DNA of 64,000 bases from an uncultured Gammaproteobacteria bacterium (GTDB lineage Bacteria > Patescibacteriota > Patescibacteriia > Magasanikbacterales > UBA922). Shown here in pieces: positions 33,904 through 61,045 of the stretch. The position numbers and the translations under genes were made by a program. The notes below the pieces were generated by a model. The model saw only the letters and a list, made by a program, of their open reading frames with translations. It was not told where the DNA came from and did no database searches. The stretch covers positions 242,651 through 306,650 of the forward strand of contig CAZMHV010000001.1 of NCBI GenBank assembly GCA_964566225.1, written 5' to 3'. The first letter of the stretch is position 1. Each line of letters begins with the position of its first letter.

Positions 33904-35538
33904 ATGCTCAAAAAACTTTTTTCTTCGGAGTCACAATCCATTACCGGAGCCGCTCTTTTACTTGGAGCTGCTTCTTTTTTGAGTCGTATTATTGGTGTAT
34001 TTCGTGACCGTATTTTGGCCTCTCAATTTGGTGCAAGCACTGAACTTGATATTTATACCGCAGCATTCCGTATTCCCGATTTTTTATATAATATTGTCAT
34101 AGTAGGAGCCTTGTCTGCAGGATTTATTCCTATTTTTTTGAGTATCTATCAAAAAGAAAAAAATAAAGCATGGGAATTCACCAACCGAGTCCTTACTTTT
34201 ACTTTTTTTTCTCTTTCTTTGGTTTCAATCATTGCTTTTTTTGTACTTCCATCAACAATCCAATTTTTAGTTCCAGGATTTTCGCCAGAAGCTCAAAAAC
34301 AAACACTCATGATGACGCGGATTATGCTGCTCTCACCTCTGTTTTTGGGACTCAGTGCCGTGGTTTCGAGTGTGCTTCAATCACTTCGTTCCTTTTTCGT
34401 CTATTCTCTCACGCCAATTTTTTATAACGCAGGTATTATTTTTGGAGCTCTCTTTTTGGTCCCCTCCTATGGACTAAACGGTTTAGCCTATGGAGTAGTC
34501 ATTGGAGCTTTTCTTCATTTTTGCATCCAACTTCCCGCATTATTTCATTCGGGTTTCCACTTTGCTCCCCTCTGGCACGGTCAAAAAAAAGGATCACATT
34601 TTTTTGATACACACATGAAACAACTGCTCAAACTCATGATCCCTCGTACATTAACTTTGGGTACGGTACAACTCAGTACCCTCATTACAACTTTTTTTGC
34701 TTCCACACTCGCAAGTGGGAGTATTGCAGTATTTACCTTTGCCACCAATATTGCTTCACTTCCAATTGGAATTATAGGTATTTCATTTGCTTTGGCAGCA
34801 TTTCCAACACTTTCTGAACTGGCAACCAAAAATAAAAAAGAAGAATTTGCAAATCATCTCTCAACTACTACCAAACAAATACTTTTTTTTACTTTGCCTC
34901 TCACTGTTATTTTTATTTTACTTCGTGCTCATATTGTACGTGTACTTTTGGGCACTGGCGAATTTAATTGGGATAATACACGAGACACGGCAAATACCGT
35001 AGGGATGTTTTGTATAGCACTCTTTGCACAGTGTCTTATACCACTCTACACCAGAGCATTTTATGCATTTCATGATACCAAGACGCCTTTTTTGAGAGCG
35101 AGTGTTTCTTTGGTGCTCACCGCAATCTTTAGTTTTGTACTCAAACAGTATCTTGGCGTAGCAGGATTGGCTCTCGGTATTTCACTCGCTGCTTTGATAG
35201 AACTTATGTTACTTGTTGTCAGTCTTAAAAAATTTGTATTTAAAATTGATGAAAATATCATACGATCTGCCTTTAAAATGATTTTAGCCACAATCATGAT
35301 GGGTATAACCTTGCAAATGCTCAAAGTCCCTTTGGCAAACCTTTTGGAAACAAATACCTTTATGGGTATATTTTTACAAGGACTCATTTCTGGACTCATT
35401 GGAATTTTTGTGTATATTGTTTTTTGTCTGCTTCTTAAACTTGAAGAAGCAACCCTCCTTTACCAAAGTCTTCAAAAAAAATGGTTGAGACTAAAAAACA
35501 TACCATCTCAAGCTGGGCAAATTGATGAAATTAAATAA
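33904..35538 (+). CDS. murJ: Lipid II flippase MurJ (MviN)
   Basis: 'GASTELDIYTAAFRIPDFLYNIVIVGALSAGFIPIF' and about 14 predicted TM segments. Confidence 0.85.
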   Translation: MLKKLFSSESQSITGAALLLGAASFLSRIIGVFRDRILASQFGASTELDIYTAAFRIPDFLYNIVIVGALSAGFIPIFLSIYQKEKNKAWEFTNRVLTFTFFSLSLVSIIAFFVLPSTIQFLVPGFSPEAQKQTLMMTRIMLLSPLFLGLSAVVSSVLQSLRSFFVYSLTPIFYNAGIIFGALFLVPSYGLNGLAYGVVIGAFLHFCIQLPALFHSGFHFAPLWHGQKKGSHFFDTHMKQLLKLMIPRTLTLGTVQLSTLITTFFASTLASGSIAVFTFATNIASLPIGIIGISFALAAFPTLSELATKNKKEEFANHLSTTTKQILFFTLPLTVIFILLRAHIVRVLLGTGEFNWDNTRDTANTVGMFCIALFAQCLIPLYTRAFYAFHDTKTPFLRASVSLVLTAIFSFVLKQYLGVAGLALGISLAALIELMLLVVSLKKFVFKIDENIIRSAFKMILATIMMGITLQMLKVPLANLLETNTFMGIFLQGLISGLIGIFVYIVFCLLLKLEEATLLYQSLQKKWLRLKNIPSQAGQIDEIK

Positions 35539-35737
35539 GCTATTATCGTGGCTTCAAATTCTTCTTTTTTGATATTTTTATGCCTCGCCAACTCCAAGCC
35601 TCTTCTGCGCACGCTGTCTGTGCCCCGTGTCTTTCTGATGAGACTCCAACGCTCATTGACGTTAAAATGGCGGATTGGGTAGGCTCAAACAAAATAAAAA
35701 TATCAAAAAAGAAGAATTTGAAGCCACTCAAGGCAGC

Positions 35738-45611: not shown

Positions 45612-45650
45612 TAAAAAATCCTCACTTCTGGTGAGGATTTTTTTGTTTTT
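45612..45650. terminator. Bidirectional rho-independent terminator
   Basis: AATCCTCAC-TTCTG-GTGAGGATT flanked by A- and T-runs. Confidence 0.7.
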
Positions 45651-46770
45651 AGTTCAATTCTTGTTGCAGTTCTTCCAAAAGTTTTTTGGCACTGCGACTC
45701 AGGTGCTTGGGTACGTCTACAATCACTTCTACATAGTGATCTCCCCTGCCACTACTGCGCAAATGTGGCACGCCCTCGTGTTTGAAACGAATTTTTTCTT
45801 TGGACTGTGTGCCATCTGGGATTTTTATTTTCTTTTTGCCATCGAGTGTTTCAATTTCTTTTTCTGTGCCGAGTGCGGCTTCGGGAAATGAAATGTGAAT
45901 GGTGGAGTGAATGTCGTCGCCTTCACGAGTGAATGTTTTGTCTGCTTTAATATGAACGACGACGTAGAGACTACCAGGTACTGAACCGACTCCCCCACTT
46001 TCACCTTTGCCATCGAGTCGAATGGTCGCACCATCATGAATACCTTCGGGAATTTTCACATTGTACTTGGATTCACTCTTGGTCACGCCTTTGCCACCAC
46101 AGTGCTTACAAGATTTTTCGGGAATTTGACCAGTGCCATGACACAGATAACACTGCACCACGGTTTGCATGGCACCAAAAATGGTTCGCTGCACCTGCTG
46201 CACCTGGCCCTTGCCCTTACATTCGCCACACTGCATCATTTTGCTGCCTGGTTCTTGACCACTGCCAGTACACACATCACAGTGATTATTTTTCATGAGG
46301 CGAATTTCTTTTTCTACACCAAACACGGCTTCTTTGAATTCAAGCTCAATATCTACCTGCACATCGCGGCCACGCTGGGTTCGGCCTTGACCTCCACCAC
46401 CACCGCCGAAGAAGTCTCCAAAAATATCTCCAAGGTCAACGCCACCAAAGTTGAAGTTAAAGCCACCAGCCTGACCACCAAAGCCACCTTGGCCTCCCTG
46501 GCCACGCGTAGCGCGCATAAAGTCGTCCCAGTTCATGCCACCACCAAATCCGCCCTGAGATTCAAAATCTGAGCCATATTGGTCATATTGCTTGCGCTTC
46601 TGCTCATCGCCAAGAATTTGGTATGCCTCGTTAATTTCCTTGAATTTGGCCTCGTCACCACCCTTTTTGTCTGGATGGTATTCATGAGCCTTTTTGCGAA
46701 AGGCTTTTTTGATTTCGTCGGCTGAGGCGCCTTTTTCAAGGCCGAGGGATTTGTAGTAGTCTTTGGACAT
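45649..46770 (-). CDS. dnaJ: Molecular chaperone DnaJ
   Basis: J-domain 'DYYKSLGL...HPDKK', G/F-rich region, four CxxCxGxG zinc-finger repeats. ATG at 46770. Confidence 0.9.
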   Translation of the reverse strand: MSKDYYKSLGLEKGASADEIKKAFRKKAHEYHPDKKGGDEAKFKEINEAYQILGDEQKRKQYDQYGSDFESQGGFGGGMNWDDFMRATRGQGGQGGFGGQAGGFNFNFGGVDLGDIFGDFFGGGGGGQGRTQRGRDVQVDIELEFKEAVFGVEKEIRLMKNNHCDVCTGSGQEPGSKMMQCGECKGKGQVQQVQRTIFGAMQTVVQCYLCHGTGQIPEKSCKHCGGKGVTKSESKYNVKIPEGIHDGATIRLDGKGESGGVGSVPGSLYVVVHIKADKTFTREGDDIHSTIHISFPEAALGTEKEIETLDGKKKIKIPDGTQSKEKIRFKHEGVPHLRSSGRGDHYVEVIVDVPKHLSRSAKKLLEELQQELN

Positions 46771-46796
46771 AATTATTTCCTGAAGAAAAGTTATAA

Positions 46797-47090
46797 TTAT
46801 TTCACCGGCCAAACAAATTGTTGTTTTGTTTCACCAGAGTCTTCAATCTTTCCAAATTGAGATTCGTATTTGTATAAACTGTCCTGCATTGCTTTGATCA
46901 TTCGTTTAAAATGCGCAGGACTCACAATCACACGAGAAGCTAAAACTCCTTGTGGAGGAAATACACTCATGAAATCAAGAATGAATTCTTCTTTGGTGTG
47001 TGCAAGGTTGGCAATATTTGCATATTTACCTTCCAGTACATCATCTTTTGCTTTAATTTCAATGTTTTGATTTGGATTATTTGATTCCAT
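46797..47090 (-). CDS. DUF3467-family protein
   Basis: 'GKYANIANLAHTKEEFILDF...RVIVSPAHFKRMIKAMQDSLYKYESQFGKI' matches the DUF3467 consensus. Confidence 0.6.
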   Translation of the reverse strand: MESNNPNQNIEIKAKDDVLEGKYANIANLAHTKEEFILDFMSVFPPQGVLASRVIVSPAHFKRMIKAMQDSLYKYESQFGKIEDSGETKQQFVWPVK

Positions 47091-47118
47091 AAAAAAATGA
47101 TAAGAATATATTTTCAAA

Positions 47119-47409
47119 GGGGGGCGGAATGGGTTAGATCATTCCGTGTTGAGAGCGGGAGAGTCGGTGACTTTGGCTACGAGCCACAGCGAGCCAAAAA
47201 TCCCCAGGGTTTGAAAGATCGATGCCAGTTCGAGGTGTTCCCCCGAAAAATGCTGTACCCAGTCAGAGTAGAACTCAAACAGGTACAACGGATTGAAGGT
47301 TTTCGGTGCCAGAAACACCAGAAAGAGATACATACAGAGAGAAACCTTGAAAGCCAATAGACACTCTTGCCGAGAAAACTTCATATCCATCTCACTTTCC
47401 CCGCCCCCC
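47119..47409. mobile_element. MITE-like element (291 bp) with perfect 9-bp GC-rich terminal inverted repeats and a 5-bp TSD
   Basis: Left end GGGGGGCGG (47119-47127), right end CCGCCCCCC (47401-47409). Direct repeat TCAAA immediately flanks both ends (47114-47118 and 47410-47414). The interior is GC-richer than the flanking DNA. Confidence 0.4.
47139..47390 (-). CDS. small hydrophobic protein (83 aa) encoded inside the MITE-like element, hypothetical
   Basis: ATG ORF co-oriented with the dnaK-dnaJ operon; two hydrophobic segments; weak RBS. Confidence 0.2.
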   Translation of the reverse strand: MDMKFSRQECLLAFKVSLCMYLFLVFLAPKTFNPLYLFEFYSDWVQHFSGEHLELASIFQTLGIFGSLWLVAKVTDSPALNTE

Positions 47410-47476
47410 TCAAAAAATACATTCTAATCAGAGAAATCCCGGTTACTACTGAGCAACCGGGACTCTCATTCTATCA

Positions 47477-49417
47477 TTATTTTTTATCATCCACCACTTC
47501 GCCTTCAATTGGACCTTCGTCTTTTTGATCTGGAGTTGCAGCATCGCCTGCTGGTTGTTCACCTTGAGGGGCACCTTGTTGTGATGCTTGTTGTTCTTGT
47601 TGGTACAACTTTGTTCCAACGGCTTGTGCAGCGTTTGTGAGTTCGTCTGCAGCCTTTTTCAAAGCTTCGGCATCGTCTTTATCTTTGAGTTCTTTGACGC
47701 GAGCAAGTGCATCAGTAACTTTTTGTTTTTCTTCATCACTCACTGCTACTTTCTTTTCTTCTACATCTTTCATCATTTTTTCGGTGGTGTAAATCATGGT
47801 GTCTGCAGTGTTGCGCACGTCTGCCATTTCACGTTTCTTTTTGTCAGCGTCCGCATTCATTTCTGCTTCTTTTTTCATGCGTTCAATGTCTTCTTTTGAA
47901 AGTCCTGAACTTGCTTCAATGCGGATGGATTGTTCTTTGCCAGTGCCTTTGTCTTTGGCAGATACGTGCAAAATTCCGTTTGCATCAATGTCGAATTTTA
48001 CTTCAACTTGTGGTACACCGCGTGGTGCAGGTGGAATTCCATCGAGAATGAAACGACCAAGATTTTTATTGTCTGCAGCCATTTCACGTTCACCTTGAAG
48101 TACATTAATTTCTACACTTGGCTGGTTGTCGGCAGCAGTTGAGAATACTTGTGATTTACTGGTTGGAATAGTTGTGTTTTTTTCAATGAGTTTGGTCATT
48201 ACGCCACCGAGTGTTTCAAGACCGAGTGAAAGTGGAGTCACATCGAGGAGCAAAATTTCTTTGCCGAGATCTCCTTGCAATTGTCCAGCTTGGATACCAG
48301 CACCAATGGCAACTACTTCATCTGGATTCACAGTCATGTTGGCTTTTTTGCCAAAGTAATCTTCTACTTTTTTGACTACCAAAGGCATGCGGGTCATTCC
48401 GCCGACCATCACAATTTCGTTGATACCATTTTTATCTACACCAGCATCTTTGAGAGCTTGTTCTACTGGACCCATGGTTTTGTTCACAAGGTCCATGACA
48501 ATATCTTCGAGTTTTGCGCGAGAAAGTTTGAGGTTCAAGTGTTTTGGACCTTCACTAGTTGAAGTAATAAATGGTTCGTTGATCTCTACTTCTGGAGTAC
48601 TACTGAGCTCGATCTTTGCTTTTTCTGCAGCGTCTTTAACACGTTGCAATGACAATGGATCTTTACTGAGGTCAACTCCTTCAGTATTTTTGAATTCACT
48701 AATAATCCATTCAATAATTTTTTTATCAAAGTCGTCTCCACCAAGGTGTGTGTCACCATTGGTTGCGAGCACTTCTACGGTTGATTGATCGCCGTCGTGT
48801 GAAATGTCGAGTACAGATACATCGAATGTTCCACCACCGAGATCGTACACGAGGATTTTTTGATCTTGTTTTTTATCAAAACCGTATGCAAATGCAGCGG
48901 CCGTTGGTTCGTTGATAATACGAAGCACTTTGAGACCAGCAATTTCACCTGCATCTTTGGTTGCTTGGCGTTGTGAATCATCAAAGTACGCAGGGACGGT
49001 AATAACGGCTTCGGTAATGGTTTCACCAAGTTTTTCTTCAGCATCTGCTTTGAGCTTTTGGAGCACCATGGCAGAAATTTCTGGTGGAGTGTATGCCTTG
49101 TCACCAAGTTTTACTTTTACTTTGTCGCCTTCAGTAACAACTTCATAAGGTGCATGTTCTTTAACAAGAGACACTTCTTTGTCTCCAGGTCGGCGTCCAA
49201 TGAGACGCTTAATAGAATACAAAGTATTTTTTGGATTGGTCACAGCTTGGCGCTTGGCAAGTTGACCTACGAGACGTTCTCCTGTTTTTGACAGTGCAAT
49301 AACAGAAGGGGTCGTACGATGACCTTCTTTATTTTCAAGTACTTTTGGTTGACCACCTTCGATGATTGACACGCAGGAGTTGGTCGTTCCGAGATCGATT
49401 CCGAGAATCTTTGACAT
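47477..49417 (-). CDS. dnaK: Molecular chaperone DnaK (Hsp70)
   Basis: '[13 protein letters not shown]', 'DLGGGTFD', full Hsp70 signature set. Confidence 0.95.
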
Positions 49418-52146: not shown

Positions 52147-52173
52147 TTAGCACTCTAACCTTCTGAGTGATAA
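52147..52173 (-). promoter_or_regulatory. CIRCE operator (HrcA binding site)
   Basis: TTAGCACTC-N9-GAGTGATAA, one mismatch to the consensus TTAGCACTC-N9-GAGTGCTAA; 4 nt upstream of the hrcA start. Confidence 0.8.
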
Positions 52174-57008: not shown

Positions 57009-57081
57009 GGGATGGTAGCTCAGTCGGTAGAGCAGTAGCCTTTTAAGCTAATGGTCCTGGGTTCGATCCCCAGCCGTCCCA
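57009..57081 (+). tRNA. tRNA-Lys (anticodon TTT)
   Basis: Acceptor GGGATGG/CCGTCCC, D-arm GCTC-AGTCGGTA-GAGC, anticodon loop CTTTTAA, T-arm CTGGG-TTCGATC-CCCAG, discriminator A; no encoded CCA. Confidence 0.8.
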
Positions 57082-57084
57082 CAC

Positions 57085-57120
57085 AAAAAAATACCTCGAG
57101 AAATTCGAGGTATTTTTTAT
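57085..57120 (+). terminator. Rho-independent terminator after tRNA-Lys
   Basis: ATACCTCGA-GAAAT-TCGAGGTAT followed by TTTTTT. Confidence 0.7.
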
Positions 57121-57239
57121 TATATTTTTCAATCCCGCACTCCTAGAATATGTCGAACAGTCAACAGATTCTGCTGCTGCGGGATCGACGAAATTTCACC
57201 TTCTCCCCCGCAACAACACCGGCATTGCACCGGGGGGGG

Positions 57240-58145
57240 TCAGTAGTCGATCTGGTTCGCCGGGAGCGGATCGATGAGCCTGATCTGGCGGAGGCGACGG
57301 AACTTGTAGGCGCCGGCCGTCACCAGAGGCTGAGTGACCTCCGGGTGGATGAAGATCGGCATGGAGAACCGATCCCGGCAGGCCGCGCGCGGGTTGACCA
57401 CGCGGTGCGTCACCGAGGGGATCTCGCCGAACGTGTGCATCTGCAGCATGTCACCAGGGTTGACGATGATCGACCCCATGGGGTTGTTGGCGTCCAGCCA
57501 CACGCCGTCGCGCGTCTTCACCTGCAGGCCCGGCTCGTCCGACGGCACCAACAGAGTGACCAGGTTGATGTCCTCGTGATCACCCGAACGGGGCACTTCG
57601 GGGTCCGAGCCGTCCAGCGCCGGGTAGTGGATGACGCGGAGCAGGTTCTCGCCCTTGGCGATCCAGTTGAGGAAGAAGTTCGGATCGCGACCGAGGTGCA
57701 TGGCGAGCGCCTTCAGGATCGTTCCACCAGCACAGGCCTTGAGCGCCGCGTGAAGTTCCAGAGCCGTGGGCCCGAAGTCCGGCACCTCGACCGGGAACTC
57801 GTTCCGAACGATCGACGCCGGATCGTTGACGTGCCAGAAGGCCATGCGGTTGGCCCGGGTCTGCCCCACCGAGACTTCGGTGTCCGCGGGCGTGAAGCCC
57901 ATCTGGTGACCCTCGGCCACGAACTCGTACCGCAGCCGCTGCTCCAGGGTCATGCGGGTGAGGAAGACCTCACGCGCGAGCTCGAAAGCCCGGGCGAGAA
58001 GATTCTCCTGCACGCCGTGTCCGACGATGGAGACGAAGCCGTGCTCACGGAAGATACGCCCGAGCGCGTCCGCGATTTCCATGTCTCCCGCTTCGTCTTC
58101 TCCGAAGCGGTGCATGTCAAGAATGGGAATACCACTCAATTTCAT
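57240..58145 (-). CDS. 2OG-Fe(II) oxygenase, isopenicillin-N-synthase-like family (GC-rich, foreign composition)
   Basis: N-terminal DIOX_N-like 'IPILDMHRF', HxD 'HEDINLVTLL', distal His in 'THRVVNP'; about 62% GC. Confidence 0.7.
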   Translation of the reverse strand: MKLSGIPILDMHRFGEDEAGDMEIADALGRIFREHGFVSIVGHGVQENLLARAFELAREVFLTRMTLEQRLRYEFVAEGHQMGFTPADTEVSVGQTRANRMAFWHVNDPASIVRNEFPVEVPDFGPTALELHAALKACAGGTILKALAMHLGRDPNFFLNWIAKGENLLRVIHYPALDGSDPEVPRSGDHEDINLVTLLVPSDEPGLQVKTRDGVWLDANNPMGSIIVNPGDMLQMHTFGEIPSVTHRVVNPRAACRDRFSMPIFIHPEVTQPLVTAGAYKFRRLRQIRLIDPLPANQIDY

Positions 58146-58214
58146 TACCCTTTCAATTTGAGTTCAATTATCCCAGGCAACCACGCCCGAGAACCACCCG
58201 CAAGAATACAAAAA

Positions 58215-58240
58215 ATACTTTTGATTGTCAACAAAAGTAT
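58215..58240 (+). promoter_or_regulatory. Perfect 9-bp inverted repeat ATACTTTTG-N8-CAAAAGTAT (operator candidate) overlapping the -35
   Basis: Seen in the divergent intergenic region between the oxygenase and the nucleoside phosphorylase. Confidence 0.4.
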
Positions 58241-58268
58241 TGACAAACAGAAGAATTTTCTTTATTCT
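58240..58268 (+). promoter_or_regulatory. sigma70 promoter TTGACA-N17-TATTCT for the nucleoside phosphorylase gene
   Basis: Consensus -35, 17-nt spacer; AGGGGA RBS before the ATG at 58300. Confidence 0.5.
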
Positions 58269-58299
58269 GCACCTACACCAACAACCAGGGGAAACCCAA

Positions 58300-59109
58300 A
58301 TGAGTGAGAAAGCTGTCTCGGCAGCCCGTCCGATCATCGGTGGACTGACCATGCACCTCAAGACCGCGCCGGGCTCGCTGGCGCCGCACTGCCTCATGGT
58401 GGGCGCGGCGGGGCGTGCACGGACGATCGCGCAGGAGTACCTGACCGGCGCAGTCAAGGTGGGCGGTGACGACAACCGCTACTACGACTGCTACACGGGC
58501 GAGTACAGGGGGTTGCCGATCTCCGTGGTCACCCACGGGATCGGCATGCCTTCGATGCTCATCGCGATCGAAGAGTCCCGCATGTCAGGTGCCCAACGGT
58601 ACCTGCGAATCGGGTCGTGCTCCACGCTCCGGCGAGACATCAACATCGGTGACGTAGCCATCGTGGCCGGCGCGCTCCCGCCGGGCGCGACAGACATCGA
58701 CGGGTTGGTGAATGCTGACCCAAGGATGTACCACGCGCTTCTCGAAGCTGCAGACAAGATCGTCAAGGTGCCCTATGCCTACGGCATCTGCGTGACCACC
58801 AACGACTTCACTGGTGGGCAGGGCAGGCCGGACGCAGAAGGCTTCCTGGACGAGGAGGACAAGCTCGATCACGAAGCGAGGATCAACGGCGGCGAGATCG
58901 ACTTCTACGACATGGAGAACTACGCGCTGTTCAACCGGGCCAGGACTCGTCGCACCGCGAGACGCGCCGGCTTCATGGCCGGCAGCGTGATGGCGGTATA
59001 CGGCAACCGCATCACTGACCAGCTCGTCGAGCACGCCGGTGACAAGGAGACCATCGAGACGGCCCTGCAGGCCATGGTGCTGCTCGCGCACGACCACCCC
59101 CTCCCCTGA
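58300..59109 (+). CDS. PNP/UDP-family (family-1) nucleoside phosphorylase/nucleosidase (GC-rich, foreign composition)
   Basis: 'HCLMVGAAGRARTIAQEYL' resembles the DeoD 'VVLMPGDPLRAKYIAETFL' region; 'ISVVTHGIGMPSMLIAIEE' and 'GSCSTLRRDINIGDVAIV' resemble the family core. Confidence 0.65.
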   Translation: MSEKAVSAARPIIGGLTMHLKTAPGSLAPHCLMVGAAGRARTIAQEYLTGAVKVGGDDNRYYDCYTGEYRGLPISVVTHGIGMPSMLIAIEESRMSGAQRYLRIGSCSTLRRDINIGDVAIVAGALPPGATDIDGLVNADPRMYHALLEAADKIVKVPYAYGICVTTNDFTGGQGRPDAEGFLDEEDKLDHEARINGGEIDFYDMENYALFNRARTRRTARRAGFMAGSVMAVYGNRITDQLVEHAGDKETIETALQAMVLLAHDHPLP

Positions 59110-59678: not shown

Positions 59679-59813
59679 AGAACAAAAAAACTGACTCTAT
59701 ATGAATCAGTTTTTTTGTAATTTGTGAAAACAAAATTTTCTTTGCACAAATCTCCCCCGGCCGCCTTGCACGAAATTGTGAACAGGGCGGGCCGGTGAAT
59801 ACGTTGTTGTGGG

Positions 59814-60896
59814 TTACTGAACTGCCGAGACAGCCTGAGCATCAGCAGGTGCACAGATACTCGTCATCACCTCGTGAGTCCTGGCCATCTCCGGAAATGA
59901 CGGAAACTGAAACCCTGAGAGTGTCTGAACATGCGAGGACTTGTCGAGCTTGAGCAGCTTGGTGATATCCTCCATCTGCTCGGCACAGAAAATATCGTCG
60001 AGCACAGCCTGACGAACCGGTGTTTCCTCATACGCCGCTTGATAGGCCATAGCTTCGGCCACCACAAACTGCATATACTGCTCGCGGATGTCTCCAATGC
60101 AGAGTGAGATCTGATTGGGATTTTTCACCCCGTTCAGATGAAAATCTGCGAGCAAATTGAGCGCCACAACGGAACGAATCACGAACTGTCCATTGGCATC
60201 CCTCGGCAACGCCTCCCGCAGATTCCAGTGCAACTGTGCACACTGGGCTTCGCGGTGACGTGTACGAAAGCACTCCAACTTCTTGGCCGCCGCTCGACTG
60301 GTCTTGGCTGCACTCGTCAGCACACCTTCGCACTGAGCTCGAGTGCTCTCGGTCAGACTGACCTTCTCCGTGATCAGTTTGGACGAAGGTGCAAAGCCCC
60401 GCCACTCCCAGTCTTCACTGTAAACCTTACATGGGAGATTCCTACAGACGGTGAGCAGATCAGCGTCCGAGACCACCGCCTGAACCGAGGACGAGACCGC
60501 CACGGTTGGTAGCGCAGGTGGAAGAGGTGGAGTTGGCGCTGTCGTATCAGGTTCCAGAGACGGAGGCGAAACCGGCGATGATAGCATCACCGGAAGGGAC
60601 TTCGCCGGGACAGGAAGAACCAGCGTCGGCTCCGAAGAGATTGCGCCCAGCAACCACGCGATGTCATCCAAATCCCCTGCAGCATGGAAGTCTTCGACCA
60701 CCACCTCCTTTTCGTCTTGCGAACTGCCCCCCGAGGCTCCCAGGAAGTATCCACCTCCAAACGACACAGCCCAGAGAAACAGAACGCTGCGGACGACGTT
60801 CCGAAGAGCCTTTCCACTCAACTCGATTTTGTTGCTCACGACAGACTCCCCTCGCGCCTCGCGCGAATTGAAAAAGTGAAGCATCAGTCGACCCAT
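59814..60896 (-). CDS. hypothetical membrane-anchored protein with Pro-rich linker (GC-rich, foreign composition)
   Basis: About 55% GC; N-terminal TM 'VVRSVLFLWAVSFGGGYFLGA', linker 'PTPPLPPALP', Cys-containing C-terminal domain. Confidence 0.45.
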   Translation of the reverse strand: MGRLMLHFFNSREARGESVVSNKIELSGKALRNVVRSVLFLWAVSFGGGYFLGASGGSSQDEKEVVVEDFHAAGDLDDIAWLLGAISSEPTLVLPVPAKSLPVMLSSPVSPPSLEPDTTAPTPPLPPALPTVAVSSSVQAVVSDADLLTVCRNLPCKVYSEDWEWRGFAPSSKLITEKVSLTESTRAQCEGVLTSAAKTSRAAAKKLECFRTRHREAQCAQLHWNLREALPRDANGQFVIRSVVALNLLADFHLNGVKNPNQISLCIGDIREQYMQFVVAEAMAYQAAYEETPVRQAVLDDIFCAEQMEDITKLLKLDKSSHVQTLSGFQFPSFPEMARTHEVMTSICAPADAQAVSAVQ

Positions 60897-61045
60897 TCGA
60901 CCGAAAATACAACAGAAAAAATTTTCTCCTGTACATTCGGCCGAATCTATAACAACGTATTTTTTCTCCTCATAAAAAGAACAACTTAGAAAATTCTAAG
61001 TTGCTGAGTATAGCAAAAAAAACTTATAAAGTCAAGAAGCAACGC

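Follow-up and report, generated by a model that had tools for sequence, protein, structure and literature searches.

What is the 291-bp block that lies between dnaK and the DUF3467-dnaJ genes of a Magasanikbacteria-like Patescibacterium, and what accounts for the mirrored sequences at its two ends? The block sits in a 64,000-nucleotide stretch of contig CAZMHV010000001.1 (GenBank assembly GCA_964566225.1), which was analysed as a whole and is referred to here as the window; all coordinates are positions in that stretch. From sequence alone the block had been interpreted as an insertion resembling a miniature inverted-repeat transposable element (MITE), bounded by 9-bp terminal inverted repeats (TIRs) and a target-site duplication (TSD), with a structured RNA co-transcribed with dnaK as the alternative, and this interpretation is called the sequence-only reading below. 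The analysis reported here indicates that the block is not a MITE and suggests that it is an orphan small membrane-protein cistron of a heat-shock operon of the CIRCE (controlling inverted repeat of chaperone expression)/HrcA type, enclosed by a conserved long-range RNA helix. The block would then be a clade-specific, vertically inherited cistron of the heat-shock gene string, encoding a protein of ~80 amino acids (aa) with two hydrophobic segments and the motif NPL between them. The sequences that flank the open reading frame (ORF) would pair over 23-25 bp in the operon-strand RNA, the resulting helix is predicted to stack on a 3' hairpin over the stop codon, and the small cistron would be closed into a loop of ~270 nt, with the terminator hairpin of dnaK on one side and the DUF3467 start codon on the other.

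The features on which the sequence-only reading was built are present in the DNA. The sequence GGGGGGCGG at 47119-47127 is matched by its exact reverse complement, CCGCCCCCC, at 47401-47409, and TCAAA stands on both flanks (47114-47118 and 47410-47414). The size of 291 bp is confirmed, as is the position of the block between the terminator-like hairpin of dnaK and the DUF3467-dnaJ genes, in a gene string that a CIRCE operator marks as heat-shock genes. The description of the block as GC-richer holds in part: its 47-49% GC exceeds that of intergenic DNA but not that of the dnaK and dnaJ coding sequences nearby.

For comparison, 80 genome and 80 metagenome loci around DUF3467 homologues were fetched, and relatives are labelled by L and the number of the locus. 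It is the nearest relatives that identify the organism as Magasanikbacteria-like. Homologous blocks occur at the dnaK-DUF3467 junction in three other Patescibacteria, L163, L231/L232 and L239. In L163, the closest DUF3467 relative (82% identical), the block is flanked by the DUF3467 start and by a dnaK hairpin of the same kind; L231/L232 and L239 are more distant, and the L239 contig spans only the 3' half of the block. None of the remaining DUF3467 relatives has the C-terminal signature of the clade, and so far as found the block is present in four species of one clade of Patescibacteria only. When the window and L163 are compared as DNA, only the ends of the block align (75 nt at 83% and 70 nt at 89% identity), and inner stretches of the arms are identical over 25 nt in the 5' arm and 27 nt in the 3' arm. 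Since third codon positions of the DUF3467 gene are 65% identical between the two species, the far higher identity of the arms indicates that the ends are under selection in place. Judged from these alignments, ends conserved in this manner are unlike those of a decaying transposition scar.

Predicted pairing of the block ends in the operon transcript

The sequence-only reading took the combination of TIR and TSD as the hallmark of transposition. Perfect 9-bp inverted-repeat pairs with spacers of 50-600 nt, however, number 331 in the window, and a 9-bp pair accompanied by a flanking 5-bp direct repeat was present in 20% of block-shuffled windows, so the signature is not significant by itself. 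The complementarity also continues outward, through and past the 'TSD', and gives two 30-nt arms (47098-47127 and 47401-47430) in which 25 of 30 positions are Watson-Crick matches. In the outward extension beyond the G-C run, 16 of 21 positions match, where the maximum among 100 shuffles was 14. The arms constitute the second-best local inverted repeat in the window.

On the operon (minus) strand, the 5' arm (47401-47430) reads UGAUUAGAAUGUAUUUUUUGA-GGGGGGCGG and holds the right 'TIR' (47401-47409) and the right 'TSD' (47410-47414). The 3' arm (47098-47127, minus strand) reads CCGCCCCCC-UUUGAAAAUAUAUUCUUAUCA, holds the left 'TIR' (47119-47127) and the left 'TSD' (47114-47118); its end is separated from the DUF3467 start codon by 7 nt in the window and by 7-13 nt across species. 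Three of the five mismatches between the arms can form G·U pairs, but only in the operon strand, and this speaks for RNA, not transposase binding, as the level at which the arms are recognised. The duplex energies of the operon strand and its antisense are -41.7 and -33.1 kcal/mol, respectively, in the window, and -36.9 and -25.4 kcal/mol in L163.

The predicted helix consists of a G-C clamp of 8-9 bp, which corresponds to the 'TIR', and an outer helix of ~16 bp that is rich in A-U and G·U pairs, making 23-25 bp in all. In folds of the full region it belongs to the minimum-energy structure of all three species folded, with pair probabilities of 0.90-0.98; in the window the minimum free-energy pairs run from U47-A379 to G73-C353 and have a mean pair probability of 0.98. 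An equal-length, anchored alignment of the helix in three species, for which one G and one C were dropped from the window and L163 runs, places standard pairs in all 69 cells (23 pairs in each of three species), with four pairs varying on one side and two on both, while slid registers were just 46-71% paired. L231 lacks one base of the G-run and one of the C-run. A U·U mismatch within the helix is conserved in all three species.

The 'TSD' positions lie inside this conserved helix, where four of the five pair. In L231 and L239 they read TTTGA/TCTAA on the operon strand (TCAAA/TCAAA in the window and L163), which changes a G·U pair to G-C and a U·G pair to U-A and leaves the pairing intact or stronger. 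TCAAA looked duplicated because UUUGA pairs antiparallel with UUUGA once G·U wobble is allowed. As far as the four sequences indicate, the direct repeat is not conserved and the pairing is.

A further conserved structure, the 3' hairpin CGGAAUG-loop-CAUUCCG (47125-47146, minus strand), overlaps the stop codon of the small ORF, abuts the C-run and shares CCG with it. All four species retain the stem around loops of 8, 9, 7 and 3 nt, and its energies on the operon strand are -7.8 to -8.9 kcal/mol; two substitutions in it give G·U pairs, and the antisense version is weakened to -5.9 and -4.3 kcal/mol. Folding z-scores of the block with its arms are -6.8 and -5.0, against -1.0 and -0.6 for the interior alone, so that the enclosed part does not appear to be a specially structured RNA. 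The alternative proposed in the sequence-only reading, closure of a structured RNA, is thus borne out as regards the terminal complementarity, which closes an RNA structure on the dnaK strand, and not as regards the ~250 nt inside, which are not unusually structured and are protein-coding. The Rfam check that had been proposed for this alternative gave no family match in Rfam 15; the region 46500-48000 yielded noise only (14-18 bits, E≥1.3), and a window-wide scan at the gathering thresholds returned four tRNAs. Immediately upstream of the DUF3467 AUG, a stretch of 8-16 nt is predicted to stay unpaired in all three species. We infer that the helix works at the RNA level, post-transcriptionally.

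The small reading frame inside the block

The hydrophobic 83-aa ORF at 47139-47390 on the minus strand, which is the operon strand, is present as the sequence-only reading had it, and runs from an ATG at 47390 to a TGA stop at 47139-47141. Translation probably begins at the second ATG, at 47384, to give 81 aa; this codon is in register with the starts of the homologues, and a Shine-Dalgarno (SD)-like motif, GUGAG/GAGAG, precedes it by 5-6 nt. In the homologues, too, the operon strand has an open frame whose start and stop align, and the proteins are 73-81 aa long. The ORFs of the window and L163 are 30% identical by BLASTP (E=3e-5), and the permutation score of the two proteins corresponds to a z of about 7.6, or 4.5 without the shared C-terminus. 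Among the 18 frame pairs between the window and L163, the small-ORF pair alone is free of stops in both species, and its similarity z, 5.3, is the highest. Five of six species pairs rank the codon positions 2>1>3 by identity (L163-L239, for instance, with 0.61/0.75/0.44); the sixth pair, L231-L239, is a poor 44-codon alignment. The ratio of nonsynonymous to synonymous substitution (dN/dS) in the small ORF is about 0.4, with synonymous sites near saturation.

The invariant parts of the small protein are the NPL motif between the hydrophobic segments, G..F and a C-terminal P. Two hydrophobic peaks occur in both the window and L163 proteins, and a single-sequence AlphaFold (AF2) model is all-helical, with helices at residues 5-25, 33-43 and 48-73 and a predicted local distance difference test (pLDDT) score of 71. 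Searches of Pfam, NCBIfam, PHROGs, PADLOC and PDB sequences with the small protein had a best E of 0.016, which is at the level of noise. Public annotation gets the block wrong, with an antisense 87-aa ORF (47097-47360, plus strand) called in the window genome and out-of-frame ORFs running through the dnaK hairpin called in L163 (2-343) and L231 (2644-2865). Empty protein searches are therefore to be expected for a small-protein family that gene callers missed and that protein databases consequently lack. The antisense 87-aa ORF is not conserved, as those antisense frame pairs that rise above background carry stops in both species. By these comparisons the interior of the block is a protein-coding, fast-evolving cistron for a predicted small membrane protein.

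The end of the ORF bears marks of a different kind. Its last 21 nt (47142-47162, minus-strand CCCGCUCUCAACACGGAAUGA) are identical between the window and L163, synonymous sites included, and each of the four species has a CU-rich, anti-SD-like motif (CUCUC, CCUCC or CCUCU) in this 3' part of the ORF. For L163, the predicted structure pairs this motif with the SD-like motif of its own ORF. The identical 3' end and the anti-SD-like motif may represent a second constraint at the RNA level. In the predictions the SD-like motif is mostly paired, with partners that differ by species, and a conserved SD:anti-SD pairing was rejected as a candidate since it is not kept across species. A promoter scan for the small ORF gave no convincing sigma-70-type site, and a TAGAAT box in the arm of the window is absent from L163.

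Origin and function of the enclosed cistron

A mobile element would be expected to leave further copies, for which the sequence-only reading had proposed a search, and none were found in the sets examined, to which the rest of this genome did not belong; the public contig is 324,723 bp long. Within the window, the G-run and the outer-arm motif, searched exactly and with mismatches, matched only the two block ends, and repeat finding returned nothing related. A blastn search of the block against all fetched loci (160+) returned the same contig and the same-site homologues only. The sense ORF had no match in protein sets of 5.8 billion and 1.84 billion sequences, and the antisense 87-aa ORF matched only itself in the 5.8-billion set. 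No match was obtained in metagenome and viral contig scans with degenerate patterns back-translated from the 83-aa ORF, or in blastn searches of plasmid and phage DNA with the block. A 15-mer scan of viral contigs produced 66 matches, roughly the number estimated by chance; only L166 and L207 had a nearby C-run, and both lie in an unrelated GC-rich context. A partner transposase was likewise missing, with no transposase or integrase domain among the called genes within ±10 kb of the block or in a GC-rich segment at 57-61 kb. The search for empty sites found one empty orthologous slot, in L237, which is without TTTGA/TCAAA; L237 belongs to a sister clade with another dnaK hairpin and hence does not provide a clean empty site.

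An origin as a non-autonomous transposon, either a MITE with 9-bp TIRs and a TCAAA TSD or an older insertion whose ends have since been reused, would account for the terminal inverted repeat with its flanking direct repeat, for a dnaK-DUF3467 junction that varies among relatives and holds unrelated genes or repeat elements, and for the observation that excising 47098-47430 leaves a canonical hairpin and U-tract directly before the DUF3467 ATG. The atypical GC content at third codon positions (GC3) of the ORF and the probably acquired GC-rich DNA elsewhere in the window are also in keeping with it. Such an origin is nevertheless highly improbable, because the searched sets yielded no second copy, the same site is occupied in four diverged species, and the ends are conserved well above DUF3467 third-position identity with substitutions that keep pairing, including G·U pairs that only RNA can form. 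In addition, the TSD is not conserved as a repeat, a TIR with a TSD arises by chance in about 20% of shuffles, a coding frame is conserved inside the block, and there is no transposase within ±10 kb. The sequence-only reading had itself held that a lack of further copies and a block conserved with compensatory changes would speak against transposition; the block is kept in three other species, its ends carry pairing-preserving and compensatory changes, and on those terms an active or recent MITE is refuted. The data examined contain no sign of present mobility of the block. The block may owe its origin to an insertion into the U-tract that follows the dnaK hairpin, a possibility suggested by the different genes that the junction holds in sister lineages. 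Very unlikely, too, is a structured non-coding RNA of ~290 nt that is co-transcribed with dnaK and in which the ORF is incidental. This would agree with the closing helix and 3' hairpin, both conserved with compatible changes, with the high GC of the block in an AT-rich genome in all species, and with the several open frames in L163. It is contradicted by an interior that folds no better than shuffles (z -1.0, -0.6) and is not alignable as DNA, and by the significant similarity that the translations in one frame show between species, together with a codon-position bias of the coding type and a conserved start and stop; no Rfam family was matched.

Two further explanations accept the cistron and assign the helix a different task. 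In a type I toxin-like module, a membrane-harmful protein would be encoded by an mRNA that is inert through 5'-3' fold-back until it is processed, possibly with an antisense antidote. The long-distance 5'-3' interaction around a small hydrophobic ORF, the mostly paired SD-like GUGAG/GAGAG, the CU-rich anti-SD-like motif that recurs at the ORF 3' end in all four species and pairs with the SD-like motif in the L163 prediction, and the rapid sequence divergence would all be at home in such a module. We consider it unlikely, since the proteins have 73-81 aa and two hydrophobic helices compared with the usual 20-60 aa (PMC8594479), the single-copy gene immediately follows a terminator hairpin within an operon and has no promoter that could be recognised as belonging to it, sequestration of the SD is not conserved because its partners change from one species to the next, and neither a conserved antisense ORF nor a match to PADLOC or any other family was found. 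A temperature-sensitive zipper, in which the outer 16 bp of A-U and G·U-rich helix, held by the G-C clamp, would melt on heat shock and adjust ribosome access to the start of DUF3467-dnaJ or of the small ORF, is quite unlikely. The heat-shock operon is a suggestive setting for such a device; at -10 to -15 kcal/mol the outer helix has little stability, its G·U pairs and its U·U mismatch are conserved, and 7-13 nt separate the 3' arm from the DUF3467 AUG. Predictions for all three species, however, leave unpaired the 8-16 nt that immediately precede this AUG, DUF3467 is without an SD sequence for the helix to mask, and no Rfam match was found. RNA thermometers as generally described, moreover, are short and local hairpins and not helices closing a loop of 270 nt.

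For the helix of the enclosed cistron, the mechanism that we prefer, by analogy and only tentatively, is a processing or stability site that is specific for double-stranded RNA and of the RNase III-substrate type, which would uncouple dnaK from DUF3467-dnaJ and restrain the membrane protein. The predicted length and continuity of the helix correspond to the roughly two helical turns of double-stranded RNA required of an RNase III substrate. Processing at this site would part the abundant dnaK message from the DUF3467-dnaJ message and would limit expression of the enclosed membrane protein. A more elaborate and doubtful possibility is that the junction is a dedicated slot for lineage-specific small genes, occupied here by a conditionally expressed, membrane-active protein, either toxin-like or a stress effector, whose translation would be gated by 5'-3' fold-back of its cistron within a heat-shock polycistron. 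The fold-back would amount to an RNA lock in the manner of type I toxins, without a promoter of its own or an antisense partner, and would be released by heat-shock read-through or processing.

Several observations weigh against the enclosed-cistron explanation as a whole. There are just three complete homologues and one partial, and the covariation shuffle control is not significant at n=3 (119/500). The GC3 of the ORF is 0.60 (0.70 in L163) compared with 0.24-0.45 in neighbouring genes, which is unusual for a long-resident gene and could reflect either foreign origin or an extra constraint at the RNA level. Three frames are open in the GC-richer block of L163, so that openness alone is weak evidence there. 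Sister lineages at a similar DnaK distance (about 84-86%) hold another gene in the slot, or nothing. Bearing on the proposed processing, an RNase III signature motif is absent from the 64-kb window.

RNA elements are also found at the dnaK-dnaJ boundary elsewhere, as a stem-loop in other bacteria and as the tpke11 RNA in enterobacteria, and the unequal output of DnaK and DnaJ is thought to be set at this boundary. The block differs from these in showing no sequence or Rfam similarity to them, and in adding a whole cistron and a 25-bp long-range helix after the dnaK hairpin. Its arms also resemble the RNase III stems of 16S/23S rRNA precursors and phage T7 early mRNAs, in which flanking sequences pair over about two helical turns or more and cleavage of double-stranded RNA frees the enclosed unit from a polycistronic transcript. 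Unlike those stems, the block encloses a small protein-coding cistron in a chaperone operon, its helix is a predicted one, and the motif of the enzyme is absent from the window.

Comparison with transcribed inverted repeats and toxin messages gives a similar mixture of likeness and difference. Correia repeat enclosed elements (CREE), or neisserial miniature insertion sequences (NEMIS), of Neisseria contain inverted repeats that are transcribed and form an mRNA hairpin, and RNase III binds this hairpin and cleaves or protects it, altering expression of the neighbouring gene (PMC2649163). CREE are about 70-157 bp long and non-coding, occur in 100-250 copies per genome, insert at TA, and differ in presence or absence between strains (PMC2649163). 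Like CREE, which lie within operons or beside them, the block is short, bounded by inverted repeats and located within an operon; unlike CREE, it is single-copy as far as tested, is fixed at one site in four species, codes for a conserved protein, and has a 'TSD' that is part of the helix. The key determinants of type I toxin mRNAs are long-distance 5'-3' interactions, SD/anti-SD elements and 3' stem-loops (PMC8594479). In the predictions, the block shares with the hok/Sok and aapA1/IsoA1 toxin mRNAs a message for a small hydrophobic protein that is closed by 5'/3' pairing, together with SD/anti-SD elements and a 3' stem-loop. Type I toxins, however, are 20-60 aa long and have their own promoter and an antisense RNA, whereas the protein here has 73-81 aa and two helices and is encoded in a heat-shock operon, and neither an antisense partner nor conserved SD sequestration is evident at the block. 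Type I toxins are usually single-helix proteins. The unusual, conserved RNA enclosure of an orphan gene is a variation on known themes rather than a new type of system.

The case has consequences beyond this operon. A textbook signature of TIR and TSD can arise from an RNA helix, which matters for the annotation of MITEs in AT-rich genomes, and the small membrane-protein family was missed by public gene calls. We know of little work on post-transcriptional control in bacteria of the candidate phyla radiation, where a helix-closed cistron between the dnaK terminator and DUF3467-dnaJ offers a testable case of operon punctuation.

The heat-shock gene string and its variable slot

All genes of the locus are on the minus strand, in the order hrcA-grpE-hsp20-NUDIX-GNAT-dnaK-[block]-DUF3467-dnaJ. 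The dnaK gene (47477-49417; 646 aa; Pfam HSP70, E=2e-245) ends with a TAA stop codon at 47477-47479. DUF3467 (46797-47090; 97 aa; Pfam PF11950, E=1.5e-21) is the next cistron downstream of the block, and an exact match to it was called in Logan SRR16481186. It is followed by dnaJ (45649-46770), which is 373 aa long according to the public assembly call and matches Pfam DnaJ, DnaJ_C and DnaJ_CXXCXGXG. A CIRCE operator of the form TTAGCACTC-N9-GAGTGATAA, with one mismatch and not assigned to a strand, is located upstream of hrcA at 52147-52173. Its letters in the window are TTAGCACTCTAACCTTCTGAGTGATAA, and it is the single match, compared with 0.02 expected by chance. With this operator, the gene string can be regarded as an HrcA-controlled heat-shock unit, HrcA control being read from the known role of CIRCE.

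The terminator-like hairpin just after the dnaK stop (47431-47467, minus strand) has a core stem of TCCCGGTT/AACCGGGA, followed by UUUCUC, and a folding energy of -24.1 kcal/mol in the window. L163 and L231 retain this hairpin, though its loop and inner stem differ there (-18.7 and -28.3 kcal/mol, respectively). The four lineages with this CCCGG-type hairpin all carry the block, and the lineages with a 138-aa gene in the slot or with an empty slot share another type.

Across Patescibacteria relatives the gap between dnaK and DUF3467 ranges from 10 to 2247 nt, the compact relatives having only an analogous hairpin after dnaK and about 20 nt more. Seven or more unrelated small genes occupy the slot in one relative or another. 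They are on the same strand and comprise genes for proteins of 138 aa (L084/L085/L098), 96 aa (L004), 156 aa (L092), 125 aa (L233) and 141 aa (L236), for a 322-aa DM13 protein (L235) and a 63-aa hydrophobic ORF (L052). L083 is also listed among the occupied variable slots, and the slot is empty in L237, L016, L025 and L042. Enclosing helices around the slot genes of sister lineages were sought and not found in L085, L098, L004, L092 and L233, and L010 and L009 had unrelated inverted-repeat content. DnaK identity to the window is 86% in L098 and 85% in L085, which have the 138-aa gene, 84% in L231, which has the block, and 83% in L237, which is empty. Since sister lineages at similar distances differ in content, gain, loss or transfer must have taken place at the slot. 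Vertical descent of the block within one clade is the simplest reading, with turnover of the slot on a longer timescale, and this variable slot merits a study of its own.

The gaps of L005/L090, L017, L010 and L018 contain palindromic, repeat-type sequences, for example GTCATTGCGAGG...GACGAAGCAATC, arrays of ACGAATTACGAA, and G-rich/C-rich inverted repeats. The presence of such sequences suggests that the dnaK-DUF3467 site tolerates repeat invasion in those relatives.

The GC-rich segment at 57-61 kb of the window consists of 57100-59100 and 59800-60900, where GC reaches 58-65% compared with 41% for the window, and lies directly downstream of a tRNA-Lys (57009-57082). It is probably horizontally acquired, and its genes include a 2-oxoglutarate (2OG)-Fe(II) oxygenase (57240-58145, minus strand) and a PNP_UDP_1 phosphorylase (58300-59109, plus strand).

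The strongest local inverted repeat in the window is found elsewhere, at 35548-35727, where perfect AT-rich arms of 34 bp (35548-35581 and 35694-35727) surround a GC-richer core of 112 nt. It has no Rfam match and no sequence similarity to the dnaK block. It lies between a gene that ends at 35538 and an uncharacterised 642-aa ORF that opens at 35675, inside the repeat, and may represent a genuine MITE-like element or a second module closed by a helix.

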